The notes beneath the pieces were generated by a model. It made no database searches. It worked only from the letters and a program-made list of their open reading frames with translations, and was not told where the DNA came from. A stretch of DNA of 64,000 bases from Leptogorgia sarmentosa (lineage: Eukaryota). A program made the translations under genes and the position numbers. How positions within the stretch are numbered: the stretch's first letter is position 1; every line of letters starts with the position of its first letter. Where the stretch lies: contig OZ210885.1 of assembly GCA_964658305.1 (NCBI GenBank), positions 15,438,001-15,502,000 of the forward strand. The letters are read 5' to 3'. Of the stretch, positions 6,462 through 44,684 are shown piece after piece.

Positions 6462-6639
6462 CAGGGTGTCCCAAAAAAAATGTCCCCTCTGTTGAAATCA
6501 GACGTTTTGGTTTGACTGTGCGTTGTGACACTTTTGGGAATTGAATTGACTTGTACATGATGTTATAATTATTCCGCCATTCATGTGCAATTAAGTCAAT
6601 TCAATTGCCAAAGAGGGGACATTTTTTTGGGACACCCTG
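6462..6639. mobile_element. Tc1/mariner-type MITE
   Basis: TIR CAGGGTGTCCCAAAAAAAATGTCCCCTCT / AGAGGGGACATTTTTTTGGGACACCCTG, flanked by TA on both sides. Confidence 0.9.
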
Positions 6640-6729
6640 TAGGGGGAGTTTCAAAAAAAACGCAACCACTTAATATTGTAAAATATTCATGTTTTTCTTA
6701 AGCACAAATAATTGTACAATCGAACTGCC

Positions 6730-7404
6730 AATAGTAATATCAGCTAAACTAATAATGGTTCAGCTCTCAACCGAACAATGAATCTATTGTGCTTGAAAAT
6801 AAAGTGAATAGTTTAGAATATGAAGTGTTTGCGTTTTTTTTAGACATCCTGTTTTAGCCAACATAATTGCATCGGATGGGTAATTTCGAAATTGTTTGTT
6901 GCTTTGCAAAACAGATGAAAACAACAGAAACCTTCCAAAACCTCTTGAGAACAATGGAAAATGGGTGTGGAGGGTATAAACAGCATAAAAACCGAATGGG
7001 AGGTCTTTATTTATAAACCTAATTAAGTAGACTGATTTCTTTGAAAAGGACTTGCCTTTTTTACGCATCATTAATTCGAAGTTGTCGAATTTTAAATACA
7101 AAGGTGATGATAGCTAATTTGAAAGTGTTCACTTTTTCAATACACCTTGTGGGCAACATTCTTATATGAGTCATTAACCGAATTAATTAATGAATTGAAT
7201 GTTTTCCATGTTGAAAAAACAAAATACTTTCAATAATAATTTCTAAAACCCATATATACAGTAGCTATAAATTAAGTAATCTAGAGTAATTATTATAGAT
7301 ATTATACAACATTGCTACAATACAACATTGCTACAATAGTCATATCAGCGAAACTAATAATGGTACAGCTCATGCCGGCACAACCGAACAATGAATCTAT
7401 TGTG
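6730..7404 (+). repeat. Two copies of a decayed Tc1/mariner transposase 5' end (MVQLSTEQ...)
   Basis: Direct repeat AAACTAATAATGGT.CAGCTC...AACCGAACAATGAATCTATTGTGC at ~6730-6792 and ~7335-7404. It follows a mariner-like end (GTTTCAAAAAAAACGCAACCAC, ~6648). Confidence 0.4.
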
Positions 7405-7780
7405 CATTAATTACTGGGTGTATGAACGTTTCTGGATGGTCAGAAAGAGCAAGATCGTATCTGTTATATGAGAGTTGTTCCCATGACACATTCCTGATTA
7501 ATTTCATTTCTCCTTTTCTATGTCCTGCTTTATTTATGTATTTATATATTATAATTCGCAAAGCTGTGGCATAGTGCGAATATAACAAAAAAAGAATAAT
7601 TATGCACAAAGGTGAATATATATGATTTTGACATATAATTCATTTTATCGTTCTAGCCATCGTACATTGGGTTTTATGTTTCTTTTATCGTTCTTTCCCT
7701 GATCTTTCTAACCAGAAGCAAAAATTACATACACCGGGTAATTAATGAAGGCGTAGAATATTGGATCAGTGCCGAAGACT

Positions 7781-7880
7781 TTTGGTCATGCAAATGCAAA
7801 TTATAGACCGTTATATAAGGAATCAATTTCTAAGGAAATGAATAACAATGATGACTTAAATTTGCATTTGCATGACCAAA
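7781..7880. repeat. Short inverted repeat / mini-MITE
   Basis: TTTGGTCATGCAAATGCAAA ... TTTGCATTTGCATGACCAAA (20-bp perfect arms). Confidence 0.7.
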
Positions 7881-7967
7881 CGTCGGGCTGGCTTCGCCAG
7901 TATTGGATACAATAAATTGCTGTTATTTTAGTCTGTGGCTGTTATACGGGTTGTGGCCAGGTACAAT

Positions 7968-10900
7968 TTACTTTATTTGCACAAGAGCTAGCCTGTTACT
8001 TGGCCACTCATAAAACCCGCCCACAGAAAGAGGTTCATCCATGTCAAATGCTGCAGTACAAACAGGAAGCAATCCAGGCGTAATAATCTTTTTCGTTTCT
8101 ATTACAACATTCCCAACACTCACTTTTCGACCGTGTACTTCTGTTCTTTCTGTAAGGACTGCCAGAGCTTGCACGTCATCACTATCTCTTGACATTACAC
8201 CAAACATCATATCTGAAAATGTAGAAGTCCAAAAACTTGTAACATGCAGATATAATAATATCATGACCATCAAGATTTTCTGAGAGCCTTACAATGATTA
8301 CACAATTATAAACTCATTAATAATTTCAGAGGAAATTAGCCTAACATGTTACTTTATTTTGGTCACACGATAATACTGGATACGTGGGGAACTATAATGA
8401 TCCAGTCCTACGACTGCATCAAAATTTTTTTCAATCTGAACTGAAAAAATAGATTATTCATTCGTTTTTGATGTAATTCCAAATCCTCCAATTTGGCTGG
8501 AATAGATTTCAAGCCCTCACAGTTTGATTCAGTCCTCAGCTTTGCCCATACAAAATTGATATGTTGGCAAATAACATTGCCTATATTTTTGGCACACGAA
8601 ACACTTTGCACTCAAATGGTATTCCATAGTTGAAATAATTGGTGTAAACGTTGCAAGAATCGCTCTACCTTTAGGAACTTTTACGGCTTTGGCCTTGTGA
8701 AGGTCATGTAGAGACGCCAGGGTTGCACGCGGGTTACACATTTTGGAGCGGTCGGAAGCAGTGGAATTGCAAGCAGCAGGATTAGAAACGGACGGGGACA
8801 AATGGGATGAAGTGACAGCAGAAACAGAAAAGCTCGCAGTGATAGTACTATCAATTGGATGGTTGGAAGAATCATGCACAGAAATAGGAGCGTTTTCTAT
8901 ACCAGAAGACTGAGACGAGCTGGAAGTACTGGAACAAGGAAAGGGAATGTTAGGAGTAACAAGAGAGCTGGAAGTACTAGGGCAAGGAATAGATGCAAGA
9001 GAGACAACAGAATTGGGAGAATCGGAATTAATGGAAGATGGTAAACTGGAAGCAAGAGGATCGATAGCGTGAAATTTCGAGGAGAGAGTATCAGATGTGA
9101 AAGACCAGCTATTTCTGCACTGCCACAACTCACGACACTGGGCTGAACCATACAAGGCAGGTTTTCTTGGTGTCTTCCCAATTTCGTCCTCTAAATTGTT
9201 TGGAAGCCCCTTAAAAACAATGCCATACTCATTCAGTTCCGAATATGGCATTTTTGCGTTTTTCTTTTTCACCAGTTCACCTGTAAAACAACCATAAATG
9301 TGTTTCTCAAAAATGTGTTTTTTTTATGACAAAAAGCATCCGCGTTGCCTGTGTCGGAGGAGAACTACTGTATAAAACATGCGACCTAAAATCCAGATGC
9401 CTGAACTTTGAAGTTATACTTACATATTCTTACTGCTCGTAATTACTTACTTACATACTCTTACTTTTTGCTTTCGCACAGAGTACCTCTCACTGAAGGA
9501 AGTTTAAGCCTGGGGCTCAATAATTTTCCGTCAAGAGTAGAATGTGGTGAAGCTGTGGGAGGAAATTTCTCGGCCGAGGGTAGGTACATGGGTGGGGCCA
9601 AAACATTTTAACGCTGAACATTTTCCCATTTCGTCAGCAAATGCCCCAAAATAATGACTCCGCTCTAATCAATCACGTGATGTATAAATATTAAGATATT
9701 TTGGTATAGTGAGGGAAAACTCCCAGTGAGATTACTCACCGTATTTCATGTTAAATAATCCCTGAATACATTTTACGGAGATGTCTTCCTTTCCACAATG
9801 AGGATGTTAAAAATGCAGAAGTCATTCAAGTTTTCCAGTTTTGAAGGATGAATCAATGTTCAACGATTAATCGATGTTAACCTTTCTATACAATGTAGCT
9901 TTAGAATTATAAAGTGAAAGCAAATTACAAGACTTACATTGTAACAGGTTGGCAAAATGATGAACCAAATCAGTTTTGCCTGTTAATAACTTGTTACCAA
10001 CATCTGTTGTACCATGGTACACATTGCCACCATACCCACATATTAATAAGCAGTGGCCTCCCATAGACTCCAGTTTTTGCACCTTTGCAAAAATATAAAA
10101 ATACTCGTCGATCAATGATATGATAGTATATTGTATGTGAAGTACCGTTCATATTGCAATCAATTTATCACTTAGAGACAACACTTAGAGATCAAGCCAG
10201 TACAGTAGCCAGAGTGTAATAGTTTATACAGCAATTCATATAAATGAAGCAATTTCATTGGTTCTTGTTCGTGTGCGGTGCGCCATTAGAGTATACATCA
10301 CGGATGACTTCATCCAACAACAAAAGATATTTTTTTAGATCATATTTTTTTATATGATAGAGTATAGTAATGATATAGTATATAATAATTATGTAGTGCA
10401 GAGTGTAGTGTGATAATAGTGTAGTGTGATAATAGTGTATTGTAGTGTAATGTATAGTGTACTGCATTGCAGTGTTGTCTACTGTGCTGGGTATAGTGCA
10501 GTCAGGCCCATTGGGAGCAGGGGGTTGGTGGGTTGGGGGCTGCTCAGAGCAACATCACTAAACCTGTTGACAATTAAATTTATTTTCACAAATGCACATG
10601 TTCAAGAGCTAGCTAATTAGCTTTTGAGCAAATGCATTTGACACAAAATTTGTCAAAGAAAATTTGGTTATGTAAAAGGGGCTTAACTGTTAACAACTTG
10701 TAACAAGCTTGCTGGCATTATTAGAATACCCGGTACTGAAACAACCTTGCAACAAGGCTGATAATATCAACAAGGTAATGTTACAAATTGCTGACAGCCT
10801 GTCCCATATTTGTTGACAACTTGGGACAAGCAGTTTGCAACTTGTTGATTGCTTGTTGGCTAATTTTTACAAACTGTGAGATTTTTGTGTATGTAGTTGT

Positions 10901-13900
10901 AGAGTGGAGTGGAGTGGAGTGGAGTGGAGTGGAGTGGAGTAGAGTAGAGTAGAGTAGTATGGCGTTCCATCGCCGCCAAAATTCAAAGTTGCTACTCAAC
11001 AACCAACATTGCTACTCAACAACCAACATTGCTACACAACATTTAATTTGGACCTTCAACATTCAACTCTCCCATACTCAACATCGGATTGCACTCAAAT
11101 CAACATTTAACTTCGAAAAATCGCAATAATTTTATATTTGTCATTTTTTATAATCTCGTAATTCACATGACACAATAATAAAGTTCACGAACATCAACTT
11201 TCAATTTCACAACTCAACTGTCTTTCCCGGAATCTTTTTTACATCTTTTATTCAAACAATGTTACGACTTGCAATATCAAATGTTGCGATTTGTAATGTT
11301 GAATGTTGACATCTGCAGAACGTACCAAGGCCGCCAAAAAGTATCGGGTGTCGTAATGACGTCATCTCTCAGACACGTGCACGACAACGTCCTGATAAAG
11401 TATGTAAATATAGTAGGATTTGTAAAGGTTGTATTATAAAATATAGGTGGTGGTGGAGTGGGGTAAATGTCCACAGGGGCGAAACTACAGCATTAATTTG
11501 TGGGGGGGGAGGGTGAATGTTCATATATTTTCTAACCAAACTTTCTGCCACTGTAAATATGTTGAACAATATGTTAATTTGCCTTAGAGACAACGAACGT
11601 TAGAGGAGGTCATTGTTGCCAGTGATGAAGAAGAATGTGAAGTGAAAGATGAAGATGTTGAAAGCTTGCTGGGATTGAATAATGCATCTGGGTAACACAT
11701 ACACACATACAGTACATATAGTGGTGTACCTAGCAGTTTGTACATGTATGTATGTATACTGTATAGTTTGCATATTCTCTTATCTTAACTTCCATACCAA
11801 AAGCAGCTAATTCACATAGAATTAGGCTTTTGAGATATTTTCTTAAGATTATATGCTATACTATACATACTGTAAAACTGATAGTAGTGGAAGAGCAAAC
11901 AGTATATTTATTTATGTATGGTACTGTATCATTTTATAGTCAAAGGTTATTTTTGGAAGAACTATGTCCAAGTGCAAATACTGAGGACATTAACGCAGCA
12001 CTTTCTGCATCCGGTGGCGATGCTAATGTTGCAGCACAAAGTTTGCTTGGTATGGACTGGCTAGTAATAAATGAATTCTTTCCATTTTCTTTATCTCTAT
12101 TTATATGAAAAAATCAGGTGTGTCATAATCTTCCTAACATTGTCTAGGTGTGGAAGATGATGATGGTGAAGAAATAATCAGGATTGACCCTTTCCATACA
12201 ACATGTATTGGTGACGAGGATGTCACATGTATTGATGCAACCAAAGCAGTACTAAAGTTTAGAGAAGAAGTGATCAACCAAAATGCACCTCGTCAATTAT
12301 TCTCTGTGTCTCGTATGGAAGGCATTGAGGAACTCAAACGTGATATATTTGTATGTTACAAAGGCAGAAGAAACAACCTAATGGCACGCCCTAGAGTTTT
12401 ATTTGAGGGTGAAGAAGGGGCCGGAAGTGGTCCAGTTTGGGAATTTCTGTCATGCGCTATCAGGATTGTAGATGAGGGAATGAAAATTTCGTCCAAACCT
12501 ACAAACAGTCATCGTTTGCCTATCCATGATCAAGTGCTGCGAATAACCGGTTCTTTTAAGGCGATTGGCAGAATACTGGGTCATTCTGTATTGCACAACG
12601 GTCCTTCTCTACATGGAATTTCGCCAGCAATTGTGCACTACTTGAGTAACCCTTCCAAAGACAAAGATATTGTCGAAAGACCACCACCTTTGTCAATCAA
12701 TGACATTCCTGATACTGACCTTCGAGAGTGTATTTCACAGGTATGCAGGGCCTGGGGCAAAATTGTATTCAGAGGCCCCTGTGCTCATACCCCCTCCCCT
12801 CCCCTTCCTCCACAATTTTTTTGTGACCATGTAGTAATGTCCCTGTTGCCCCCCTCAACATATGTATGACTGCAAATACTGTATTTCCTCTCGCACATTG
12901 CCAACATTTAGCCTTCCTGCCCCCCCCCCCACTCCCTCTTCTTATACACACCCACTTGAAAAAGTTAGCCCTATTCCGGTTTTAAAGCAAGATTTTTCCT
13001 AGATACCAATCTAGGAAAGATATATATAGATATACCTTGATACCTGCTTGTATTAATATTTCACCAATTTAATAAGCGCTGTTTTCAATTTATTCAGCTT
13101 GATGATCTTGAAGGTGATGAAAAGATTCCAGAAATGTTGAAATGTCGTTTGGACCCGTACTTGTTTGAGGCTGGGTTGGATCCAGGAAATTCGGATCACA
13201 AATTTTTGATTCAAGGCCTCATGGTTTATAATATCATTAACAAAAGGCGGTTGGAGATTGAAGACATCTGCAAAGGTGTGATGGGCAGCATGATTGATAC
13301 TGATGTATTTCATCAATGTACGAATAACCATACCCTTACCCAGCAAACACCATCCACATGCCCAACACCCAGCAATTTTGAAGGAGAATTTGACACAAAA
13401 TGACAAAGCATTTGGTGTCAACTTGTTAGCTATTTATCGTATAGAAAAACACAATAAGCAAAGATCATCTCTCTTTGGTATTATTAATACTCTATCTATT
13501 TACAGGTATGGAAGAGATGAAGCTGGTGACATACCTCTCAAAATGGCCAGTTCTTGCGAACGTAGTATTTCCAAGGGATAATGAACGCATACTGGACAGG
13601 AATGAGTTTAAAGATAAGATTGATTTTGAGGAAAGGGATGAAAACGAACATGCCACACAGTTCTTATTTCAGTATATTGACATGATCGAACAGAGACAGC
13701 AAGGTAATTAGTATTATTTTTTGTTGCTATTAGTTTGTATGTTATTTCATGTACTAGACAGCACTTGTTACATTTATACTTAGTATATTCTGATAGAAAA
13801 CTAGCATTTAAAGCAATTAGGTTTTACTTCCTTAGTGATATTGTCATATAGAGGATAAATCTCTCTTGACTGCTGATGCATAAATTTGTCATAACACTTT

Positions 13901-16900
13901 TTGTTTGTTTTTTAGAGGGGGCTAACTTGACAGATCTATGTTGTTTTTGGACAGCTGTAAACGTACTACCAACTGGCAAGGACATGCTTGTTAAATTTGA
14001 CAGTGAAATAGAATTGCCTGTTGTGGAAACGTGCTTCATGAGCATGACCTTACCATCGAAATACAAGGTTTTCGAAGATTTTGCAAAACACATGGATATC
14101 GCCCTTAAATATGGGTCTAAGGGATTTACCTTTTCTTAAGATGCTATTTCATTTACATTGTATGTTGAGTTATGTTACATTTGATATTAAGTTATATCAC
14201 TTTGCTTAAGTAATAAACTCCACAGCATTAATATATAGTTCAACAACATCATGTATTAGCATTCCTTCAGGTGCAACAAATTGTGCCATACCTTCTACCC
14301 CTTGCAAATCCAAAGGACACACTGTTTCAGGCACTTCTACAGATTCTGACTCATGTGGTGGTACAGTCCTCCAAGATCTATGCCATAATTTGAAAAATCC
14401 CCCTAGCAAAGTTGAAAGAACATGGATTTTTTAGACGGTTATTTAGCATGTTGGATAACAAGGTTCCTGTCTTTAACTGAACATGAATGACATCTTGGAC
14501 TAAACTGGAAGTTTAAATGCTACTTGCCGTGCAATTTACAGTGTCCATTCTGTGTGCTGAATGACTATTATTTGACTCACATACACATGATTATACATTA
14601 TACAAGTTACAGATACATGCAATGTTGTATGACATTCTAATTAACATGTAACTTGTATTAACTTACCTGAAATGCCTCTCTTGATACATCCGAGCCACTG
14701 TGATACACATGGTGAAGCCACTTCACCCATAGTTGCATTGGTGTAGAATTTGTTTCTGTTCTCAGAGGATGATGTATCCAGGCATTCTTCCATGACTGTA
14801 AATGTCTATTCACTACTGGTAGGAAAACGGAATGAAGACACCACAAGTGAATATCGTTGTCAACGTCAAGCAGGCCACTCCTCTCCAATTCATGGAATGT
14901 GTTATAAAATAATACAAGGCATTCCTGAAATACATCTCTCCACAGTCTCTCTATACGTTGGTTATGTGTGCTTTTGCCTGCCAAAACAGATGTGAAAAAT
15001 TTAAATTCATTCATCAATTAATGTAACTTCTTTGGAACGTAATTTCCAGGCCATTATCACATGCATTGCAAGTTAGAAACCTGTAATCATGCTTCCTCTT
15101 CCTGATCCCCTTTGCGGATGTGAAATCATGTACCATGAAACATCAACATTTTCCCCTCCTTTGTCAGAGCGCACGCGGGATGGCAAACCAAATTCTTCAA
15201 CAGCCGCCACAAACAATTGAAGAACAGTGTCTGCCCTATTATTATTTGATGCATGTATATATACAGGTATCCTGGAATAACCATCAATTCCACCATGGAC
15301 AACAATCCTCCACCTAAATGAGAGAGGAGCACCTAATAATCAATCACACTATTTTATTTTGGTAATCGTCAATTGGAATATTTGGCTACTCTACTTAGCA
15401 TTAAGTAGTTAAAACAATACCGTATTAGCTTATGATTTCCATCTATGTGCCACAGGGCCAAGGGGGAATGTACATTGTACGTTCTTCTCTTAACAGCTTG
15501 CTTCCATCGTTGGGCAGCCCCAGAAGGATCTGTTCTTAGAAGTGATTGCCTAATTCTTTCTCGCTGTGTTCTGTGGCCTTTACTGTGAAGATATCCTTTG
15601 AGCATTCGGATGCCAATACTGGGATTCTCTCTTTGCGCAGACATCACTAGCATGTCCAGTTCGTCGTCCGTTATGTTACTGTATGTATCTAATTTCAATA
15701 AAAATTTTAAAAATTTCCACAACCAATTTATATGCAATTTTTTGGTACCTACATAATTTAGGGTGGACAAGAATTGACGAACCACTGACATTTATCGCAC
15801 AATAGAGGTATCAAACTCACCACAAATACTGATACCAAACGCTGCAAGTTTTCTTTGCACAGTTCGCTTCCCTACCCCCAAAACGCCGCTCATTTCCCCA
15901 GCTGTAAATCCTTGATCTACCAAAAATGCCAACTGCTCCCTTGAAATATCAATTGTTGGTCTTCCGCGACCTATAGAGGGAGTCGACGAAGCCTGATAGC
16001 CATAATACTGTGCATCACTGCCATGATTGCTATCCAGTACAAATCTTTCCAACTGCTGGTGTACTGAGGACATTGTATTTACAATTTCGTCAGGTACATC
16101 CAACGTAACGAGCATTCTGTTTAGGTAGTCAAGCCTTAATTTTACCAAATCAACATCGCTTGCATTGCTTAAATGCTCTATTGTGCCCGCTATTTCTTTT
16201 ATAGCATTTGTCACCGTGCTTATCGTTAGTTCCGCCATGTTGTCAACAACGCCACTATTTTGCACGTGTCTGAGAGATGACATCATTACGACACCCGATA
16301 CTTTTTAGCGGGCTTGGTACGTTCTGCAGATGTCAACATTCAACATTACAAATCGCAACATTTGATATTGCAAGTCGTAACATTGTTTGAATAAAAGATG
16401 TAAAAAAGATTCCGGGAAAGACAGTTGAGTTGTGAAATTGAAAGTTGATGTTCGTGAACTTTATTATTGTGTCATGTGAATTACGAGATTATAAAAAATG
16501 ACAAATATAAAATTATTGCGATTTTTTAGAGTAGAGTAGAGTAGTTTATAGTGTAGTGAAGTATTGCAGAGTATAGCATTGTATTATATAGAGTATAGCA
16601 TATGTACCGTCAGGTAATGTATTCATTGCATAGTATTGTATACTATTGTATACTACTTAATTAGTGCCGTATAGTACTCTAAGCCTGTCCCTTGATCTAC
16701 TCAAGTATCCTAGCAAAAAACTGAAATTTTGAAAGCTTAGGATAATTTGGATTAAAAAAACCCAGAAACTTGAACTTTACCTCTTTCATCATATTATTAA
16801 TAATTTTTTTGGCCTTGAAGTCCTTTGATGGTAAGGAAACATCATTTTCTGATGCTAATGCCTTTGTCTTATATTTTTCTTTCTCTCCAGCAGGAAGACT

Positions 16901-19900
16901 TCTCCACTGTTCACCCAGCTCTTTAAAGGAATCACAGCGGGATCCACTGGTGTCTGAAAATTAAATATACAAAGAATGTTTAAACAAAATCAGAATACAT
17001 CCTGTCCTATTATCATACCAATAACACTATTTGTCATGCACATGATAAATAAGTTATTCTAATTAACTAATGTCTGTACCTTTACTACCCTACTTTATTA
17101 TAGTTGCTGGCAACACTATTTCATAACTATCAAGGGTTAATGGGCTAACCTGATGCAATGTATACACAGTACTGTGAGACTCTTAATTACCTTTAAGCAG
17201 ATTTTCACTGGCAAAGACATTAAATCCAGATCTTTTTCTGATTAGCTTGCTTTTTGCTCTTTTAATAGATGTCCTTCCACTCACTTTGGCTTTATAATTA
17301 TTGATCCAGTGCTGGATGTAAAAATTACAATGTAAATCAATAAAGGTGTCTATGCTGGACATAGTATATCTCTTCTCAATTAATATTTAGTAAATAAAAA
17401 TTAAACTTCATATTGGTTAGTTAGTGGAAAAGATGATATATGACTATATATAACAGGGCTTAGTTATTTTAAACTGTTTAAATTTCATTTGTATATATGC
17501 ATCATCTCTCTACCAATTACCATGGATAGAGGACATGTGCAGGATGTACATATTCATTTCTAACAACCCTATCTCAGTTAATCCAAATTTCATATTAGAA
17601 ATCTAACAGTGGTATAGCACTCACTACAGGTATGCTATTGGGTTACTGAACGGTCCTACTAAACACCGTCCGCGCGAAAATCTGCTTTCTATTACTCTTT
17701 CTATTTAGTTTTTTATCATTAATCATTACAGTTCTACGCAATAATTTATAGTATGCTTATTAAAAAGGGACAAAACATCAAGATTTGTAATATATATAAA
17801 CATTTATATTATTATATACACATATCAAGATTGACATAATACATCAAGATTCGGTATATAAATTTATATACCAAGATATAAATATATATACCAAGATTAA
17901 AATATATATGTCAACATTTAAATATGTATGTCAAGATTCACATGTATGTATAAAGATATATATATAGCCTACATCAAGTCAACATCATGTCAAGATTCGT
18001 ACATGCTTATACTGATGAGTCAGACCGTTGGCCCTATAAATTTTGAATTTTTGATCAAAAAACAAATGATTGCAAGTTGTAAAGAGCACAGAAAAATGTG
18101 ATTCATTTATTGATTACATGGCGACAAAATTATATACATATTTTAGGCTTCTTAGCAGCTGGTGTAACTGTTTTTGTTAGTTAGATTATAATGATATCCG
18201 CAATAACATATACAAACAATCGCTTGCAAATGTTATCAATAGCAATGTTAACAATAGCTGCCATAGAAATCACTTCATTCACTTGTTAACAATAAACTAT
18301 AGGATTAATAAAAAATCTATGGAATGTGTTGCGAATCCTTGCAGTTCAATTCGTGGTAGTAGGCGATTAATTTTTCCAATACGTAAAAGGTTATGGCAAC
18401 TTTGGCAAGTGGTTTCTTTCATATCTTTCGCACATTTGTAGCCATTCATTACATGTTTATGTTAGTTAGATTATAATAATATCCGCAATAACATATACAA
18501 ACAATCGCTTGCAAATGTTATCAATAGCAATGTTAACAATAGCTGCCATAGAAATCACTTCATTCACTAATAAACTATAGGATTAACAGAAGAAAAACTG
18601 CTGTTTCCGCCTAATAACAATGAATAAAAGACCAAAACTACTAATGAGCATTCCAGAGATTTTTTAAGCAACCATGCAGTGTGACGTATGACTCACACAT
18701 GGTGCATTCATGGGTATTTACGCATAAATAGCGGCATGCTATGTCATAACCCGTCAGCTTTCATTGAAGCAAGTACTCCGCGTTCGCGATCGTTGGAATT
18801 TTCTACATTTTGTTAGCTTTGTTAATCAACGTTTTCTGAAAATGGGCAGAAAAAATTGCAAGCAAATTGAATATCCCTGTGGTACGTGTGATAAAGATTG
18901 TGAAGTAGGATCACCACCAGCTGTGTTTTGTGGTGACTGCAATCTGTGGTACCATGCGGTCTGCCAGCAGCTCACAGCCGAGATGATGAAAGCTCTGGAA
19001 AATGATGTTGTCCAAGATTATGTTTGCAAGAATTGCGCACAACAAGATGGCGAATGGGAAATGTGTTCTAGGATGCTAGTCCAATAACGTTTGGAAGTGA
19101 AGAACTGTTTCCAACAGTATCAGAGCCTGAAGCAGAATTTGCGGTGTCTGCAAGCAAGAGCCTCTGTTCATACAGTGCAGAGAATGAAGTATGTTGGACA
19201 GATATATTCGTATTGTTACATATTAGAAATATTGGTTATTGATATTTGATTATTTATAGTCCTCCGGCAAAAAACGAAAACGTATTGGGTCAATCTCTGA
19301 TGATGTCATTTTACCTTCGGACCTCGAAGAGAAAACGTTTCACAAGAGCTCAACAGAGGAACAAGACCTTGACAACGATTATTCAGATGAAGTTCGACCC
19401 GTATGTTTTTGAAAAAAAAATATATATATATAGTATAAATAAATATATTTAAATATATATATATCTTTAAGCATATTTTAATTCTTACTAATATTTATAA
19501 ATTTTAGAAGTCATTTGGCGTTGCTGAAACTAAATGTGTGCCACCTGGTGCCCATGAAGGAAATGGTTCTTTTCTTGCTGCTGACGAGGTCGTTAAAATT
19601 TTATTAGCCGAGGACCCCGATTGTTTGTGTACAGAACTACCAAAAGGTAGGAAAGAAAATGTATATTTTGTTGTGGATAACGATGAAAACATTAAGAGAC
19701 GGAATAGTGGGGGAAAGAGTAAGTTCCCAGACGACTGTGGAGCATGGTCAGATTCCTCGTCAACTAAAAAACATCATTATGTCTTTGAAAACGGGTCCCT
19801 TGTTTACATTGAATTGAAAAAGAAGTTATTTTGCAAGTATTCAAAAGGAGAAAAACGCCCATTAGATCCTCAGCCAAAAATGGATGACATTCTTATTCTT

Positions 19901-34455: not shown

Positions 34456-35470
34456 GTTGTTTAAAAAACGTGGAATATCGCGCCAAAAATAAATTTATGC
34501 TAGCAGTACCAGAACCATTTTTATCCGAACCGCACTAATTTTTTTGTCTAATGTAAACGGGCCTGTTTAGCAGTACCAGAACCATTTTTATCCGAACCGT
34601 ACCAAAAATTTTCCGTAATGTAAATGGGCCTTTTGTTTACAGTCTTCGATCATGAAAACCAAAACCAGTTTTATAAAGGCACAAGAGCACTGATGAAACA
34701 TGGCCACCAGTTTCCTGAACAATAACTTCGATGCCACCAGCTCATCGACTGAAGTTGAAAGTGATGGTTGCTCATCAATTCAACAGCACAGTAGCGAGGA
34801 AGAAGATACAATAGTTGTTTCAAGCCAATACGCGCCGTATGCAGATGAGCCTCTCACTCCAAGTTCAAACTGTGACGATGACGGTGATACTCATGCAGAT
34901 TTATACGATAACGAAAGACAAGATTTAGATGGACTGACACCCGAAACACTGGCTGCTCGTCAAGATGGGGACATTTGCCTTGATTCTTGGTAAGTCCGTT
35001 TAACAATTTCAAGTTTCGGCGAAGCAACAAGTTCGTAGTTATAATCTTTGGTTATGTCTACAGGTGCAAATGCGAGCACTGTCGCACACAAAACGTCGTT
35101 GGGGCAACAGAATATCGTTGCTGTAGAGAGGTTGTGGACGCCTGGGGAAAATATGAAGTGAAATCGTGGACAAAATATTCGACTCGTCGAGTTGTGTCTC
35201 CGAGTATCAAATCGACTGGTCCACTGTCGCGTTCGACTCGTCAATAATTACATTATACACACATTACTGTTCGTTCTCCACTTACCAATGTGCATCAAGG
35301 TTAGTATTAGGGTTGCGCATATATTGAGAAATAATGTCAATGGGCAACTTGCACTTAAGGTTAAAGTTGCTCCCTACACTTTACAGTATAGAAATGTAGA
35401 AAATGCATCGAGTAGATAAACTCTTTGAGAAGATAGTGCTTTTTAAAAATCGAAGTTTGTATATAATGTA

Positions 35471-35604
35471 CTGTATTCTCTCTATTTAGCCCCCCCCCCC
35501 TCTCAAATAAGCCCCCCCCCTCTCAATTAAGCCCCCCTCTAAAGGTCCTGAAATGAATAAGCCACCCCCCCCCCCCCCCAGGGGGCTAAATAGAAAGAAT
35601 AAGG
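35471..35604. mobile_element. Tc1/mariner-pogo-type MITE
   Basis: TA|CTGTATTCTCTCTATTTAGCCCCC ... GGGGGCTAAATAGAAAGAATAAGG|TA; a related end occurs at ~41344. Confidence 0.65.
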
Positions 35605-36656
35605 TATAACAGTGACAATCAAAATTGATCACAAAAGTGACATCACTACTGTTGCTACGGTAACAATGACAATTAAAGATGGCAGGTATTTTGCCTTTAA
35701 ACGCATTTTGCTTTTGAAAACGCCTGGTTACCCACATTTTTTATTTTGAGAAAACATTTTCTTGCAGTACCGTAAATTATCGGATCAATTTTAAAAAAGT
35801 TCTGTAGAGCCAGAAAAATTTTGAAAAACCCTGTTTATAAATGTTTTAAAAATTTAGTTCTTTAGACCAATTTCCAACTGTTTGATTGTCACTGTAGATA
35901 TGGTATACAGATTTTGATTGCTAGAAAGCACCATCACCTCAAAGGTTTGATCTAACAAAATCTAACTGATGCATTTTCTACAATCTACAAACTGTAGAGA
36001 GTCACCTTAAGAAAAAAAATTAATCTGGGAATAAGAAAGAATATTGGGATCCCACCGTGGTCAGGCAAATTTTTTCAGCCTGCCCGTTGTGGACGCACAA
36101 TCAGAGTGACATCACAATGCATTCTACACCTGAGTACATTTGCACTGTAATAAGATTCATACATGAAAGAATATTTCCAGAAAGAAGTTATCAATCTTAG
36201 AAAAACTGCAAAGTTTGGTTACAAAATGTTTGTATACATTTGTATTACATGTGGAAATTGGTAACTAATTTAGTTACCAATTCATGCACATAATACAAAG
36301 TATACAAATTTGCTAACTTTGAAGGGCTGTATGTTACAACATATTGCAACCAAACGTTGCAACATTACTAATTCCAAGATGCTCTTTCTAGCTGTCGTGA
36401 TAGATTTTGTTCCTTTCGCTTAGATTTAAATTTAGTCTAAATCACAAATCGTCCATTGGTTCATAGCCTGTGAACAGGCCCTCGCAAGCCTGCAGGGAAT
36501 AAAACGGGTGCGATGAAGCGAGGGCCTGTGGACATTCCTATTAGAACACTGTTCCGCCCCTTTCTAATTTTCCCGTGGTAATTATTCGCGCATCAATCAA
36601 ACAGTCACGAGTTATATAATAATTTCTAATTATAATGTGATCTGGGCGGTACTAAC

Positions 36657-37274
36657 ATGAGCGCACAGGCCGTATGTCGCTTATGCAAAAAACAATTGAT
36701 TGCATTCGGCTCAAGACTTCCGAGAGTTTCTTTATTTGCAGTTCTCAAAAACAAGGAATTAGTCACCGCACCACAAACTACTGTAGAACTACATAAACTG
36801 TTCCTGCAAATGGGTTTTCCGCTTCAAAAAGGGAAAAACTTCTCCGAATTGTGCTGCTTATTGTGCGCTCGTAAGACGGTAAGATGTTACAATTTATTTG
36901 AGTCAATAACAAAACATTGCAATGATATAGGGCGCCAAGAAGACTCTACTTCAAGACCTGCACTTCAAAGTCCAAAGCTTCGCCAAAAACGAACAGTGGT
37001 TGCCCATTCTCCAAGTGGTGTTTCCCCTACGGTTAAAAAATGCAGATCTGGCCATGGACAGGCTGTACCTACTTCGAGAAGGGTATTGAGTTTTAATGTT
37101 GACATCCAAAAAGAAAACGAACCAGCTTGCACTTCCAGCTGTGTAGAAGATTCAGAAAATGGCAGCCCAACTCTCGAAAACACTGTTGAAGAGCAAAACT
37201 CAAAGAATGAGATGAATATTGACGACAGAATGAAAGGTTTCATGGATTTATCTGGAACAGCGACAGTCGTAAAA
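36657..37274 (+). CDS. First exon of an Academ ORF (CxxC..CxxC zinc-binding N-terminus), truncated
   Basis: MSAQAVCRLC...LCCLLCARK; donor GTAAGT at 37275; downstream exons are deleted. Confidence 0.55.
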
Positions 37275-37399
37275 GTAAGTAATAATACCTTTTATATTTA
37301 ACGTTGTGAACTATAGTTATAGAGCTTTCAGTCGAGCTTTGTATGCAAATTATATTTTTGTGTCGTATAGATTATAGTTGGTTGGCCCAATTCAGGAAG

Positions 37400-38860
37400 A
37401 ATCATCGAACATGAATGTAAAGATGTTAATGAGAAGAAAGCATTGAAGTGTATTGCCAGACAATCCCCATTGTCACTACAATGACAATTTCCCTTACATG
37501 TTGAACAACACAGATGGGCTGGTGTTTGTGGAGATACATCATCACAAAAATATCCATATAATCCAACCCTTAAACAACAATCACTGTTTAACAATATTTG
37601 CTTTAACTCTTTGTTTATCTCAGATAACTGTCTGTTTGTACCATATATTATACTGTAGGCTTGTTCTCCATCCCTACCAGCCCGGCCAGTTTGCTGCACA
37701 AGTTCTGTGATGCTTTGCGGAGGGCCAAAATGGATAACATACCTGACACTTGGAAAGTTAATACCCATTCCAAGGGCACATGTTGCAATAACAACTCTTT
37801 GTGTACCATCATTTTGGAAGTCACTGACTGTTTGATTCTTATGACTGTCCCATGTCTTTGCATAATAAACACCTAGCAATGGTACTCTTTCCCCTTCCTT
37901 TTCAACAAATGCTTCACTTTTTAAGATCATTAGCAGGTAACTCAACACACTTGAGATGTCATTGAATGTCCTACAAAAAATTATTGTTTGTGGAGTATTT
38001 TCACATTCCCTTTGGATCATTTGAGCAATCCATTTCAAGTGATCCAGCTTATCACATTCATCATTTATGTGTACAAAATTCAGAAAAATTGGAGACACAT
38101 CAACAATCACTGGGTTAATCATACCACACACCTTATACAGGGACTTTCTTTCATCAAGCTTCACAGATGCAGTAAGAGCAAGAAGAGGTGTTCCCGGTAA
38201 AAATGAGCGCAAATTTTTAACTCTTCCAAATGCTTCTCTGAATGGGACCTGTTTTTTTCCTCGTCTATCAAGGGAAGCTTGACCACTGAAAAATAACATA
38301 CAGAGACATCCTATAGTATAGAACTGTATGTAATACAATTACCTATATTCTTTAGCTCGTAGAAATCATCCTTACCAGAGCGAAACAGAATGAACTTCAT
38401 CCACAACAAGTGTCACAATTTGCTTCCCTAGCTGGTTGTCTCTCAATTCACCTAACCATTCATCTGATAACCAACGTTCCGCACTTCCGTACACAATATC
38501 AGCATCATATCCACGTTTCAGCTCGCTTTCATCCTCCTCATCACCCAAAGCGAATGCTTTCAATCCTAATCTCTTTAGTTCTCTTACTTGGTCGTTTATT
38601 ATCGACAAAAGTGGTGTCACAACAATAACAGTGCTTTTACCCTCCAGACACCACAGCTCCTCCAGGACGCTTGGCAAGATTTGAAATATCAAGCTCTTTC
38701 CGTATCCAGTGGGAAGAACGGCTAAAACATCTTTTCTTTCTGAAACCGCCTTTATACACGCTTTCTGTCCACTTTTTAAATGCCTAACGTGTCCAAATTT
38801 CGCTAAAGATTTATCTAAAACCTTATCGAAACTAAAATCGCTACTGGAACACCCAGCCAT
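37400..38860 (-). CDS. RecQ-type SF2 helicase (2 exons, 3' end truncated or chimeric)
   Basis: LPTGYGKS, DEVH, LALTAS, VIATCALGMGINFP, QQTGRAGRDG, Zn site C..R..CCSTC; intron ~38374-38286. Confidence 0.9.
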
Positions 38861-39235
38861 ATTGTTTAGTAAATAAATTTTCGGCAGAAAAAATATTTAT
38901 GCAAATTATCGAGATTGACCAATCAGAGCCTGATACCAGATTCTGGTATCACGGAACAGTGTTCTAATAGGAATGTCCACAGGCCCTCGCTCCATCGCAC
39001 CCGCTTCAGGTCGCACCCGTTTTATTCCCTGCAGGCTTGCGAGGGCCTGTTCACAGGCTAATTGGTTCATGCATTTAAAATTGTTTTTTGAATACTAGTT
39101 CATGTGATAAAGCATGAATTTTTATGCACATGTCAAAAATGCCATAGCCCCTGCTTTATGCAACACTGGACAGTGCACCCCATTCCGTGATATACCAATT
39201 AATTTTTGTACAATGTTAAATACTATTTTCTGTAG

Positions 39236-39903
39236 GCACAGCTATGTTACATGAAATGCTAGAAAAGTTTCGTAATAGTGAGACTGTGTCTAAGGTTCTC
39301 GAGGAAAGTCCCTCATCTGAGGTTTATTGGGCGATCATCAACTCTTCTCATTGGTCTTCGACAAAGGCTGTAACAGATGCAGATTTGCCACTTCTAATCC
39401 AATGTCTCTTAGAAAACGAAATCTTGTTATCACGAAAGTATGAGGTAGACCAGCTAAGTGAAAGGTTGGCTTTTTTGGGATTGCTGGAGAAAATGAAAAA
39501 GAATGCAGATCTTTGCTTCAGTCTATTCTGTTTCAGTGATGACGCAGTTCTTACAGCAGAAAGATTTATCGGTCTCATTGACAGCAAAGTTGAGATTCCA
39601 ACTGACTTTTCTAAAAAGCAGTCGTATGATTGGTTTATTCAGTACATTCAGAGTGCAAGTGCTGAGCAACTGCAGTGTTTACTAAAGTTCGCAACATCTT
39701 TCAAAACAATCCCTCCTTATGGTATGGAACATAAAATTACGATCAAGTATCTCCCAGATGGTGATGAAAAAGCAAGTTTACCAAAATCCCTGGCTTGTTT
39801 ACCCATCCTGAGTCTTCCCACAGTACACTCCAGCCAAACGAAATTCAACGAAAGTGTAGATCTTGCTTTAAAATTCGAAAGCGAAGGTTTTTCGAGCTCC
39901 TAA
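39236..39903 (+). CDS. Terminal exon of a HECT E3 ligase (C-lobe), upstream exons lost
   Basis: LLKFATSFKTIPPYG..ITIKY..LPKSLACLPILSLP..ALKFESEGF; catalytic Cys present; acceptor TTCTGTAG. Confidence 0.8.
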
Positions 39904-40438
39904 ACAAAAAGGAAAAAAAAGGTAATAAAAACCATATGGTAAAGTACTACTAACTTTATCCTCTGCAGGAGCTGTCTCCCAAAGACACACATTAGGTATG
40001 TTGTTTCAAACACTTTGTTAATATTGCTATCAGGCCTGTTAATTGTTTCTGGTCCTTTGAGTTGGTATTGTTATGTTAATATATTGTACCTATACTGTTG
40101 GCACTAGTACTGTAGGTATATACTATGACTAGTAAAAATATTACTACTTTGTCTTCAAATTTGTTAACACAGAGGGATGTGTTGCAGGGACATGCTGCAG
40201 GGACAAATCCCATCATGTATATTTTCTGTCATAGGCAACCAGCCAACCTCAATAGATGTGCCTACAAAACACCATCAATAGCATATTTTACAAGCTGGCA
40301 ACTGGTATTTTCTTTAACCTTAGACATATTGTGAGAACCTTTGATTATGCATTTAAACAGAAAAAAATCAATATTTGCAAATTTGGACTATTATTTTTTG
40401 CTATTAGATACTCTTAACAAAAAACCCCTGAAATTTCA

Positions 40439-40537
40439 ATTTCATTATGTTTTATTAATTAGAATGTTTAAATAAGACAGTATATATATTATATACTGTC
40501 TTATTTAAACATTCTAATTAATAAAACATAATGAAAT
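40439..40537. repeat. Near-perfect 99-bp palindrome (47-bp arms)
   Basis: ATTTCATTATGTTTTATTAATTAGAATGTTTAAATAAGACAGTATAT, a 5-bp spacer, then the exact reverse complement. Confidence 0.9.
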
Positions 40538-40558
40538 ACTATTATACAATGGGCAATA

Positions 40559-40949
40559 CAGGGTGTATCATTTATATCTGACTGCTGGGGTGGTTGTTGT
40601 CAAACATCACCTAAAACAGGCTTCATAGGGTGTAAATTTATGAAATGTTGTTGCAGTCGTTAAAGTCCTAGGCAATTTGGTGTACAATAAGTCCATCGCA
40701 CAACCTCTCTTTTACAAGCTGCTAAAACATTTCCCAAACTTACACTCCATGAATGATACCTTGTTTAGTTGGCGTTTGACAACAACCACCCTGGCAGTTG
40801 GATGTAACATTTTCAGATAAATTTTAGTGGTGGAGTAATCAGAAGACCTTCAAATATCCATATTAACAAAAAAACAACAATCGAAAATTAAGCTGCTTGT
40901 TTGGTTGATAAGCTGTTTTATAATTGTTTGCTTTTTTTGACACACCCTG
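40559..40949. mobile_element. Degenerate Tc1/mariner-type MITE
   Basis: TA|CAGGGTGT ... ACACCCTG|TA, with an internal inverted repeat GGGTGGTTGTTGTCAAAC / GTTTGACAACAACCACCC. Confidence 0.6.
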
Positions 40950-41058
40950 TAGATTTACTTGCTTTACTTATGAATTTTGTTATGTATTGTACAACAGGTG
41001 CTAAAATGTATATAATGGTTAATGTTATGTTATTTGTTAAATAAAGTTTATAATTAGC

Positions 41059-43842
41059 TTACTGAATTGCTTGTTGTAAGCTTATTACCACATTGAGATA
41101 AATGTCCAACCCAAATGACTGACTTTCAGCTAAAGGATTGTACTGCAAACAGTCATGCACATCAGTATCATCTGGTAAGTCTACGTATACTTGAGGGACC
41201 TCAATATGTGACCCACTTTCAATGTTGTCACCCCACTCCTGACTTGGCAATGGTCCATTCCAGTCTATACTTGATTGCACAGCCTCCATCTAAATTTACA
41301 CATACTGCTATGTACTTTTCTATCATGACCATATTTATATGTACCATATTCTCTCTATTTAGTCCCCCCTCCCTAATACATCCTCTCTCTCTAATAAACC
41401 CTCCTTTTTTAAGTTAAGAAATTTATTAAGAACCCTCTCTATTAAGCCCTTCATTATTAAGCTAGTAGAATTTTTTACCATAAAATAAATATGCCCCCCT
41501 TCTCTCAAAAGGTTCTGAAGAAAATTTGTTAAAATTTCTTCATCAAATGTCAATTTTTTATGTATGCTGTGCACTTATAGTTACAGTACATGTATTCTAA
41601 CTGTAAACAGTACTCACGAAATGAACAAATCTACATTATTTAGAACTGTTGTATGTATTGCTCACCTCGCTGATTTCATGACTTGAACTGTTGCTGTGGT
41701 GACCCCACAACCATAGCTGTGCTGGAGACATGTTTCGTTCACTTGACAATGGGTGGTTATTCCATCCATTACCAAACTCCAACAGATGAGCATTTATCTG
41801 AGGCTCAAATACATATCTCAAAGAAAACAGGTGTACATCATTTGTAATGTCAAGGAGTCCTTCATGTTCCATGTATGAAAACAGGTTGTAATAAATATAG
41901 GTGCATCCTTGGAAGAGATCCCTCCAGAATCTTTCAATTCTTTGATTATGGCAGCTCTTACCAGCAATGAAACTGCCCCTGTTAGGACCTCGGTCTTGAT
42001 GTGTGAACATAAACCAAGCCACATCGACATTCTCACAACCTTGATCGGCTCTTACACGAGATGGTAGGCCATATTGGGTGACAGCTTCTTTAAATAGTGT
42101 CAGAACAGTATCAGCTCTATTGTTGCAGCTGCATCTTAAATACATGATGTGCCTGGAATAGCCATCAATCCCACCATGTATCACAAAACCCCATCTGAAT
42201 GCAAAAATGAAATAGCATATCTATTAAAAAGAAAAGCATGGAATGTATACAGTTAATAGTTACGTAAACCATATGCAGTGGCTTCTTGGCGACACATTTA
42301 AACTAGCGAACAAATGAAATTTGTCTTTGTAAAAACTGATTGTTTACAACAAAAATTTGCCGATGTGCGGCTTTCAGCTTATCATAAAACTTACATGATT
42401 GAAAATGCAGGAGCAGGAAATAGCATTATAGAGAACATACAAATAATTTCTTTTTCGGGGAGGGGGCATGGTCCTGAACCTCCCCAAAGGTCTCGCACCT
42501 TTGGCACTTGCATTGCCCCCCCTCCAGTCTGAACAGCGACACCCCCTTGCTGTTTACCTTATTAATTTGTGATTACCATCAATATGCCACATGGATAATG
42601 GTGCTTGAACAAAATATGTTCTTCGGTTAACTGTTGTCAACCGTAAGGCACGCATTAGTATTCCTTGTGGATCTACTCTTCTCATACTATCCCGGATTCT
42701 ATTCCACTGAATATTGAAGCCTCTAGCTCTTAAGTTCCCACGCATCTGTCGATAACCACAGTTGGGAAATTCACTCACAATTCTTGCACTATATGGAAAA
42801 ATTATGCAACTAAGTAAATTTCGAAAATTATAGCATTTGGGGTGGGGACTGTTTTAGGTTTCAGATGAAAAATATGGATCAATTTACTTTAACGCCCCCC
42901 CCCCCCCCCACCTCAGGTGACGTATATTCGTTCTTGAATATAAGCCCTCCTTTTATCATGTGAAAAGTTAAAAAGAAAAAGGGAAAAAAGTCAGAAATTT
43001 CATTTAAAATTGCATCAAACTTTCTGAACAGGCTCACTCTCATATCTCTTCGGTCGACATTCATTGCCTTTATTTTTGTTGTCCATCGATTTCAGTATGT
43101 TAATTGCTTCTTGACTAAGCGCTATGCTAAAATTTTTAACCGCATGAGTAGAAGTGTGTCACAGTGACTGCTTTCTGTCCAAGGCCAAAATAACGCAGGA
43201 AAAAATTTAAAAGACTATTGAAACAGATAGTATAGGGGGGCTTCTTTTCAAATGCAAAATTTCGACACACAGTATACAGGTGGTGGGGGGGGGGGGGCTA
43301 TATTCAAATGCTAAATTTTGTCATTTGAATATATGCCACCCCAAGCGAGGGGGGGGGGATTGTTAAAGTAAATTGATCCTGCTTACTTACATCAGTTGAT
43401 CTAAATCTGAATCACTCATACAACTGTAGGTATTTCTCTTTAACTGAAATTTGTCAATGCGCCTTTGAACCGTCTTTGGTGATACAGAAAAAAATTTCGA
43501 AATTTGAACGTTGGTGAAGTTATACTCAATATAAAGTTCTAGCTGTTCTTTCGGTATGATAACTTCTGGGCATCCACGGCAGCCTGTCTTCTTAAATAAC
43601 TTTTCTTGAATTTCTTCAGCCTTGTTGTTTAAAAGAAGTTCATGAGCACTGTTTAGTAATGTCACGAGTTGGAATGGAATATTGAAAGATACATCTGCTG
43701 CATTAAGTAAATAAATAATTCTTTCCAAGTGAAGGCAAATATAATCCCTACAATCTTCATTCTCTGCTGTTATTCCATCTATACGGTTGATTAGAAACTC
43801 TATACTTGAGCGAAGGCCATTCTGCAACGACGCCGTCGCCAT
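41059..43842 (-). CDS. IS3EU-type DDE transposase, 4 exons, apparently intact
   Basis: Exons ~43842-43391, ~42788-42558, ~42194-41666 and 41289-41059 join in phase: [63 protein letters not shown]. Confidence 0.88.
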
Positions 43843-44684
43843 GTTTAAAAACAAAAACATACATGATTCCGATTAATTATGCAAATATGCACCTTTTTCA
43901 ATATATCAAAAGGCGACGAGTCGAACCCGTGGTGAGAATCAGCACGACGACTCGAAGACGGGAAAAGATTTTGTTTAGTTCGACCCGACCCGACTCGGCG
44001 AATCGGCGCGTGAACAGTCGAGGCGTGGGGGCACGACGCATCAAAACGGGATATTCGACTTGTCGAAACCGACATTCGACGAGTCGAAACCCACAATTGA
44101 CGAGTCGAACGCGACAGTGGGCCAGTCGATTTGATACTCAGAGACACGACTCGACGAGCCGAATATTTTGTCCACGATTTCACTTCATAGGAAAAATGGT
44201 CTTTGATGGGTTCATTGAGAAGATGAAATGCATCACCGAACATGAAGATTACAGTGCAATGTCAAATAAAACAGTCTTATTGCAAGTTGCGCCACTTTTG
44301 AGGAACAAAGATGGAGTAAAATATAAACGCTGTGCTGGAACCCAAGAAAACGAGTTAGTATATTATATCTGTTGTAACGTTTTTACCTTCGATACGTGTC
44401 GCGTTATATATATATATATTATTTTATTGAAGGTTTGTTCGATCAGTTGCCTATAGGTGGATTCTAAGATGGCTTTGTGGGTACATTGGATGGGATAATA
44501 GAAGACCTCTGCCAGCTTGTATATATGAACATATAAGGACCAAGTACCAAACTGGACAATCAAGGCGTTACAAGAGGGTGTGACCAATGTCTTGACCTAG
44601 TTCACAGCAGGGTTGCCACAGTTTTCTTTGGAATGCCCGGAACGATTGCAGAAGGTACTCCCGAAAAACTGCATGGTAAACCAT

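Follow-up and report, generated by a model that had tools for sequence, protein, structure and literature searches.

The window analyzed here is a 64,000-nucleotide (nt) stretch of contig OZ210885.1 of Leptogorgia sarmentosa. An earlier note, made from the sequence alone, had placed in it a DNA transposon of the IS3EU type in which a minus-strand transposase converges on a HECT ubiquitin-ligase gene. Both genes were found within 10958-16526 in that arrangement, the transposase on the minus strand and the ligase on the plus strand, between terminal inverted repeats (TIRs). We refer to this transposon as element 1, and to a divergent transposon of the same type in the window as element 2 (Table 1). 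Judged by its sequence, element 1 is a real member of the IS3EU/GingerRoot group. We consider it likely that it represents a decayed copy from a lineage in which a DDE transposase and a ligase with CUE and HECT domains converge, and in which the ligase is the accessory gene of the transposon itself.

Table 1. Features of elements 1 and 2 in the window (TSD, target site duplication; positions are those of the window)
Feature	Position	Strand	Evidence or remark
Element 1, decayed IS3EU/GingerRoot-type transposon copy	10958..16526 (5569 nt)	.	Arms, TATGG end, both genes inside
Element 1 left TIR	10958..11381 (424 nt)	+	Outer 158 nt with TATGG end; inner 266 nt are the pairing arm
Ligase, end of upstream exon	11387..11400 (last 14 nt)	+	X4, X12 and X19 contigs diverge from the window upstream of 11387
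Ligase exon, acidic linker	11588..11691	+	GT..AG joint 11690>11939 in X19
Ligase exon, CUE-like helix bundle	11940..12049	+	BLASTP to P0005 residues 212-244, E 1e-5
Ligase exon, start of HECT N-lobe	12148..12740	+	Gene model, homologue and contig alignment
Ligase exon, HECT N-lobe	13098..13275	+	Joints 12737>13095 and 13273>13504 in X19 and X20; tblastn P0002
Ligase exon, HECT N-lobe	13506..13703	+	Joints in X19 and X20; tblastn P0002
Last ligase exon, HECT C-lobe	13916..14139	+	Cys codon 14032-14034, stop 14137-14139; Pfam HECT
Last transposase exon, frameshifted	14206..14402	-	Stop 14206-14208
Transposase exon 4	14667..14977	-	Core, HNQRIERLW; Pfam rva_4 E 2.8e-36
Transposase exon 3	15081..15313	-	Core, SDKGGEN; Pfam rva_4 E 7.2e-29
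Transposase exon 2	15421..15688	-	Pfam rva_4
Transposase exon 1	15821..16238	-	ATG at 16238; N-terminal helix-turn-helix-like part
Element 1 right arm, truncated	16261..16526	-	Outer 158 nt including terminus absent
Element 2, divergent IS3EU-type	35152..44189 (9038 nt)	.	Ends TATGAAG..CTTCATA, TSD GGAAAA
Element 2 left TIR	35152..35245 (94 nt)	+	4 mismatches to right arm 44096-44189
Foreign transposon nested in element 2	36464..39060	.	Own TIRs, 9-bp TSD ATTGGTTCA
Element 2 HECT remnant	39235..39903	+	Cys codon 39796-39798; Pfam HECT E 2.1e-13, tblastn P0003
Element 2 transposase	41059..43842	-	Exons 43842-43391, 42788-42558, 42194-41666, 41289-41059; rva_4 E 2.7e-68

Transposase and ligase genes of element 1

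The transposase gene was resolved into five exons, and its introns start with GT and end with AG. Three of the exons matched the Pfam family rva_4 (PF24764), with E values of 2.8e-36, 7.2e-29 and 1.4e-5, in agreement with the spliced integrase-core transposase described previously on this strand. The motif HNQRIER is common to the transposases of elements 1 and 2, and motifs of this type are presumably parts of the catalytic triad. The five exons total 1427 nt, a length not divisible by three, and the reading frame changes near 14365 in the last exon; one extra base was present behind 14365 in contigs from five sequencing runs (X1, X4, X12, X14 and X8). The window transposase is therefore frameshifted, with the loss of about 50 C-terminal residues, unless the assembly is in error. 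The transposase region had no cover in run X19 and slight cover in run X20, from which nothing was concluded.

The six ligase exons between 11588 and 14139 gave an open, partial model of 468 residues. The last of them matched profile positions 226-306 of 306 of Pfam HECT (E 4.7e-8), so that the profile comparison suggested in the earlier note came out above the curated threshold (33.5 bits against a cut-off of 23.9), while exons B to D yielded no Pfam HECT match when taken singly. The sequence LPVVETCF places the predicted catalytic Cys at residue 434 of the model, with 34 residues after it and a Phe at position -4, and the spliced plus-strand HECT gene with a catalytic Cys was thus recovered as claimed. 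The window exons are colinear with residues 260-619 of P0002, a protein of Paramuricea; the acidic exon gave nothing significant against P0002 by BLASTP. Among the matches listed for the largest ligase exon, the closest proteins were from Actinostola (64% identity) and Paramuricea clavata (48%), both anthozoan cnidarians, which makes a cnidarian host probable. Word-indexed protein searches returned 2, 1 and 3 matches.

Splicing of the ligase gene was seen in contigs from a related organism. A 2184-nt contig of run X19 skipped all five predicted ligase introns at the exact GT..AG borders, and a 789-nt contig of run X20, a second sample of the same organism, skipped three of the five; none of the other six runs aligned showed ligase splice joints. 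X19 and X20 are regarded as RNA by guess. The X19 contig extends about 590 nt further at the 5' end than the window sequence. At the other end of the gene, the two coding regions of element 1 finish 67 nt apart (14139-14206 region), and the spliced X19 contig reaches 14218, past the transposase stop codon, so that the transcripts would overlap tail to tail. At 14215-14218 about 460 nt of extra sequence were present in X12 and X8; the X19 contig, too, goes on from this place, for at least 155 nt that are unmatched.

A divergent element with the same gene pair

A tblastn search of the window with the exons of element 1 revealed a further transposase on the minus strand (43845-41669) and a further HECT C-lobe on the plus strand (39634-39891), both inside element 2. 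The TSD of element 2, GGAAAA, is perfect (35146-35151 and 44190-44195), and removal of the element with one TSD copy restored an open reading frame (ORF) across the insertion site. Its transposase has four exons and an open 480-residue model, and is 45% identical to that of element 1 over 399 residues, with some intron positions differing. Its ligase gene comprises the C-terminal 221 residues, which showed 37% identity to residues 427-647 of protein P0003 and a Pfam HECT score of 51.1 bits; no upstream ligase exons of element 2 were found.

At both of the two rva_4 loci of the window, then, a HECT-like gene lies to the left of the transposase, convergent with it and inside the TIRs. The same ligase in the same place and orientation at both loci indicates that the pairing predates the split of the two lineages, and its recurrence in a distantly related element 19 kb away makes it likely that the ligase serves the transposon as a helper gene of its own. 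From these sequences, the HECT gene very probably belongs to the transposon lineage. The one-off capture that the earlier note had set against its own proposal does not fit the presence of the same convergent gene in two elements with only 45% identity between their transposases.

Capture can also be put more broadly, as a single or repeated acquisition of a host HECT fragment in the manner of Pack-type elements, with no role for the fragment and neutral decay after it. Both window ligase genes are truncated, relatives of the ligase are numerous and most come without genomic context, and IS3EU families have acquired foreign genes, for example TET/JBP, that are passed between transposon superfamilies (PMC12730594). 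We nevertheless regard capture as most improbable. The position and orientation of the gene are equal in the two elements despite the distance between their transposases, synonymous change is in excess (see below), and the gene is no fragment, its multi-exon structure being complete and its splice sites functional. The two ligase lineages are also colinear over four domains: P0002, which is element 1-like, and P0003, which is element 2-like, align end to end through four units with an E value of 3e-31, whereas the best sequence match of P0002 among solved HECT chains, AREL1, reached only 2e-4.

Termini and flanks of element 1

The inverted arms of element 1 (11116-11381 and 16261-16526) pair over 266 nt with 3 mismatches. 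The left terminus at 10958 begins with TATGG, directly after a (GTGGA/GTAGA)n microsatellite, and the right arm ends at 16526 against the same microsatellite. No counterpart of the outer 158 nt of the left TIR (10958-11115) was present in the right arm or anywhere else in the window. In a contig of run X12, the sequence 11009-11380 was found inverted and joined to the transposase side at 16258, so the right arm measures at least 372 nt in that organism; this indicates that the true TIR is about 424 nt long and that the window copy is without its right terminus. An identical 18 nt of (GTAGA)n microsatellite occurs at 10940-10957 and at 16527-16544, where a 6-bp TSD would be expected; with this repeat on both sides and the right end missing, no 6-bp TSD is readable for element 1. 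The previous description of one long TIR pair, set beside the TAY..RTA termini and 6-bp TSDs known of IS3EU elements, is accordingly retained for the inverted arms and for the left TATGG end, but the right arm is short by its outer 158 nt, position 16526 carries no RTA terminus, and no TSD can be read against the microsatellite on both sides.

The outer left TIR holds a 20-nt unit repeated 2.7 times, and the heptamer CAACATT occurs in 8 copies in 11004-11308 (305 nt), compared with 41 copies in the whole window, where 24 were expected. A palindrome, TGACGTCA, lies in the inner end of the left arm. The inner ends of the TIRs (11356-11381 and 16261-16286) are open in frame with the gene downstream of each and carry an ATG each; from these the reading frames would run MTSSLRHV.. 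on the ligase side, where the frame of the ligase is open into the TIR with the in-frame ATG at 11356-11358, and MMSSLRHV.. on the transposase side. Both genes might start in the TIR or be driven from it.

The flanks of the locus were present in runs X1, X4 and X5. Summed contig depth over the left flank (10700-10903) ranged from 3,359 to 18,286 in X12, X14 and X8, which indicates that the left flank is itself a repeat. Under a 31-letter rule none of the listed contigs bridged either junction of element 1, and an X4 contig extended just 30 nt inside.

The ligase family and its predicted structure

At E values up to 1e-3 a search with P0002 returned 1823 clusters, many of them fragments; 606 remained at a limit of 1e-10 and 31 at one of 1e-30, and a language-model atlas placed relatives of P0002 in Cnidaria, Chordata and Mollusca. 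Forty-seven sequences were aligned as a family: 42 came from the 150 best matches (all those of at least 400 residues, plus some fragments) and 5 had been found earlier. Pfam domains detected among the 47 were HECT in 22, CUE in 2 (E up to 1e-3) and fn3 in 5, with an integrase domain in none. P0002 and P0003 scored 49.3 and 53.7 bits against Pfam HECT. The family profile, in which the window exons were included, matched whole HECT domains, that of HUWE1 over residues 44-402 of 405 with an E value of 4.4e-13.

An AlphaFold model of P0002 reached a predicted local distance difference test score (pLDDT) of 84.3 with the 47-sequence alignment; with 9 sequences the score was 47.7, too poor for use. 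The model contains four units. Residues 15-133 form an N-terminal domain and residues 143-170 a small strand-strand-helix unit; three helices (194-235) and a two-lobed HECT domain (263-613) follow. Its best structural match was a HUWE1 HECT-ubiquitin conjugate (E 3.8e-12, template modelling score 0.61), and all structural matches listed were HECT ligases at 12-17% identity. The N-terminal domain gave no lead in an atlas search (best score 0.78), and the small unit carries a weak zf_UBZ hint in P0003 (Pfam E 0.046). We infer a full-length ligase of about 620-650 residues composed of an N-terminal domain, a zinc-finger-like unit, a CUE domain and a HECT domain. Such proteins are often named G2E3-like by NCBI. 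A complex prediction for P0003 with the core exon of the element 2 transposase returned 'no support', which is no evidence either way.

The third unit corresponds to the exon that had been described as CUE/UBA-like. Exon 11940-12049 matched the corresponding stretch of P0005 (residues 212-244; BLASTP E 1e-5), gave nothing significant against P0002 by BLASTP, and aligned with the region of P0002 and P0004 that corresponds to Pfam CUE. The Pfam CUE match of P0002 was above threshold (E 3e-6, 27.2 bits against 21.1) and that of P0004 below it (E 0.0025, 17.9 bits), while the ligase family profile matched the solved CUE domain of Tollip (PDB 1wgl) with an E value of 0.0023. The folded protein is P0002, in whose model the window exon aligns to the three-helix stretch; mean pLDDT was 90-95 in the 10-residue blocks covering residues 201-230. 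As in CUE domains such as that of Tollip, three short helices are seen in the P0002 model, here just upstream of the catalytic domain; unlike in them, the window exon reads LCP for MFP, and ubiquitin binding is a prediction in this case. The MFP and di-leucine motifs are the ubiquitin-contacting motifs of CUE domains. In the MFP column P0005 has ICP, and P0003 and P0004 have MFP. The label 'CUE-like' appears fair for the window exon on this evidence. With respect to the earlier note, its ubiquitin-binding exon is supported through the homologues P0002 and P0005, but the exon itself was not matched by Pfam.

The HECT domain might have ceased to transfer ubiquitin, leaving a ubiquitin-binding adaptor that acts through the CUE domain and the zinc-finger-like unit. 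The residues around the Cys do depart from the HTC motif (ETCF in element 1, LACL in element 2), the family is far from solved HECT ligases, given the low identity among the structural matches listed, and element 1 is without six residues of the N-lobe. We consider this very unlikely, however: the Cys was kept in four of four sequences compared, with the same 34-residue spacing to the C-terminus in elements 1 and 2, a Phe precedes it at position -4 in three of the four, and both lobes are present in the P0002 model.

Signs of selective constraint, and decay of the copies

Among the substitutions listed for the ligase exons, 13 were synonymous and 14 non-synonymous (n = 27), where about 1 to 3.7 is expected under neutrality. 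The ratio of non-synonymous to synonymous change (pN/pS) was about 0.29 for the listed substitutions (binomial p = 0.0016), and a hand count in one table for the DNA runs X12, X14 and X8 alone gave 10 to 11. At the listed sites the ligase shows more synonymous change than neutrality gives, which is a first sign of constraint on it.

Several observations weigh against the reading of the ligase as an accessory gene of the transposon. The substitution counts are a sample, with 56 and 258 further rows in the tables beyond the sites listed, and the listed sites of the transposase exons show no constraint (2 synonymous and 10 non-synonymous). Nine of these 12 sites are differences between the window and X1/X4, which may reflect decay of this copy. 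The last transposase exon of element 1 is out of frame and its right TIR lacks 158 nt. The contigs of X4 and X12, like that of X19, diverge from the window upstream of 11387, X12 with 1500 nt there, and 1.5 kb or more is therefore gone from the window copy between the TIR and the remnant of the upstream exon. With this sequence went the 5' exons of the ligase, including about 190 N-terminal residues that are present in P0002 and P0003. A further 18 nt, coding for six residues of the N-lobe, are missing at about 12500-12508; the six residues are present in P0001, P0002 and the DNA runs X1, X4, X12, X14 and X8, and the contigs of X19 and X20 show a single extra base only at this place. The window has W at 12438, where all other copies have R. 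Exon 11940-12049 alone has no Pfam CUE match, and its LCP stands in place of MFP, with LL kept. Element 2 retains the last 221 residues of the ligase alone; both ligase genes of the window are thus truncated, and no complete ligase is encoded by either element. As for expression, the intron-free contigs of X19 and X20 may derive from a processed DNA copy rather than from RNA, and the X19 contig is without 41 nt of the CUE-like exon, a gap that leads to a stop at 12024 in the window frame, so that the transcript is probably not fully coding.

The window copy of element 1 can most likely no longer move or make a full ligase. As an intact unit the element described in the earlier note does not hold, given the truncated end, the deleted 5' exons of the ligase and the frameshifted transposase. 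Its proposal of a transposon-encoded ubiquitin ligase (E3) is supported at the level of the lineage, as very probably a transposon gene, but not for this copy as a working unit.

A copy that has lost its mobility could also have been domesticated, the host keeping the CUE-HECT gene at a fixed site while the transposase decays. Consistent with domestication, a copy with one terminus missing should be immobile, the listed substitutions show constraint in the ligase (13:14) and none in the transposase (2:10), spliced contigs were seen for the ligase, and X1, X4 and X5 contain the sequence that flanks the locus. On the other side, the window ligase is itself without its 5' exons and six N-lobe residues, the expressed contig of X19 carries the frame-breaking 41-nt gap, no listed contig bridges the junctions, so that orthology of the insertion lacks support, and the transposase count is tiny and taken from the listed sites of a longer table. 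The right TIR is complete in X12. In X12, X14, X8 and X19 the TIRs carried far more contigs and summed depth than the interior did, as in a family that spreads now or did so recently; this excess fits numerous TIR-bearing derivatives, although depth gives no copy number. We therefore regard domestication as quite unlikely, and the decayed copy of a two-gene transposon lineage remains our reading of element 1.

Relation to known transposons and ligases

The IS3EU superfamily of Repbase is characterized by TA..TA ends and 6-bp TSDs, and has been merged with GingerRoot by phylogeny (PMC10045372). Some IS3EU families have TAYGG..CCRTA ends (PMC12730594), and GingerRoot elements, reported from coral, sea anemone and fish, have 6-bp TSDs and TIRs of 100-150 bp (PMC6839031). 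Elements 1 and 2 resemble them in the IS3-like DDE transposase of the rva_4 family, in the TA-starting termini (TATGG and TATGA), in TIRs of about 100 nt or more and, for element 2, in the 6-bp TSD; unlike them, element 1 has an unusually long TIR of 424 nt. Element 1 was assigned to the IS3EU/GingerRoot type because of its rva_4 transposase, its TATGG terminus and its long TIRs, together with a sister element that has TA..TA ends and a 6-bp TSD, and the same features bear out the IS3EU-type designation of the earlier note. Ginger1 and Ginger2 were considered as the family and set aside in favour of IS3EU/GingerRoot, with which the 6-bp TSD, the TA termini and the rva_4 match agree.

Accessory enzymes have been described in fungal IS3EU families, which carry alpha-kinase and TET/JBP genes in the orientation opposite to the transposase (PMC12730594). 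The arrangement here is similar in having an extra enzyme gene opposite the transposase and differs in that the enzyme is a CUE-HECT ligase, not a kinase or a dioxygenase, and in that the hosts are animals. The TET/JBP genes in IS3EU elements have been proposed, without experiment, to counter silencing, and other transposon enzymes that blunt host control are listed in the same paper alongside TET/JBP dioxygenases, namely SET methyltransferases and VANDAL anti-silencing factors (PMC12730594). The structure and function of IS3EU elements were called largely unexplored in a 2025 paper (PMC11934779). The words 'HECT' and 'ubiquitin' are absent from PMC6839031, PMC12730594, PMC10045372 and PMC11934779. 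No description of a HECT ligase paired with IS3EU was found in our literature searches (Repbase entries and reports and bioRxiv supplements being outside their scope), nor, within the same scope, any DNA transposon family described as having its own HECT ligase.

Compared with cellular HECT ligases (HUWE1, the NEDD4 family, E6AP and AREL1), the predicted protein shares the C-terminal two-lobed domain and a Cys some 35 residues before the C-terminus, with the Phe at -4. It differs in having ETCF (element 1) or LACL (element 2) in place of HTCF, in the N-terminal domain, zinc-finger-like unit and CUE domain that precede the HECT domain, and in being encoded inside a transposon.

Other features of the window

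The window as a whole is eukaryotic and rich in transposons. The element nested in element 2 (2597 nt, upstream of the HECT remnant) has TIRs of about 100 nt (TAGCCTGTGAAC...), RecQ-like helicase ORFs on the minus strand (Pfam DEAD and Helicase_C) and a 221-residue ORF without a Pfam match on the plus strand. Its 9-bp TSD suggests a Mutator-like element with a helicase gene. The ligase remnant and the transposase of element 2 are separated by a region with a perfect 48-nt palindrome that has a 3-nt loop (40439-40537), and degenerate telomere-like AACCCTAA repeats lie just to the right of the element (45122-45210). The ORF that is split by element 2 (34700-35151 and 44196-44456) is Cys-rich, and its right half has no Pfam match; because it adjoins a Harbinger-type DDE_Tnp_4 ORF (33514-34494), it is probably part of another transposon.

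Further ORFs of transposon type were found in 30994-32301, 45348-45779 and 46841-47998, with a hAT dimerisation domain, an IS1595/ISXO2-like transposase domain and two weak DUF3987 matches among them. A 1123-residue ORF on the minus strand at 21825-25196 had no Pfam match at E values up to 1e-3. One locus of a gut metagenome contig (L001), with 34% identity to one transposase exon, was judged unrelated and was not used.

Implications for the transposon and its host

HECT domains take ubiquitin from a ubiquitin-conjugating enzyme (E2) onto their Cys and then pass it to a lysine, and CUE domains bind ubiquitin. In the mechanism that we propose for an intact element, the transposase would bind the repeats of the TIRs, excise the element and insert it elsewhere with a 6-bp staggered cut. 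Ubiquitin would be loaded from an E2 onto the Cys of the ligase and handed on, with the CUE unit retaining ubiquitin or ubiquitinated partners, and the ligase would in this way tag a target protein with ubiquitin to the benefit of the element.

As the target we tentatively prefer a host chromatin or silencing factor. This candidate is ranked first by analogy with other DNA transposons that carry presumed anti-silencing enzymes, and it is put forward as a possibility for which the chances are modest. The transposase itself or the transposition complex would be an unlikely target, and repair signalling at the break a distinctly unlikely one.

For the group as a whole, it is conceivable, and somewhat short of probable, that the IS3EU/GingerRoot transposons of animals are two-gene elements with an ancient, dedicated ligase that is inherited together with the transposase and rewires host ubiquitin signalling, either to escape silencing or for transposition. 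If this two-gene reading is true, they would be the first class of DNA transposons with their own E3 ligase. To this picture the present locus adds a second lineage within one window, a clean TSD, evidence of splicing and a first sign of constraint, in copies that decay individually. Should the ligase be an old companion of IS3EU elements, it would give direct access to the way in which a cut-and-paste transposon manipulates the ubiquitin signalling of its host, and many genes annotated as 'uncharacterised HECT' in cnidarians, molluscs and fish would be transposon genes.

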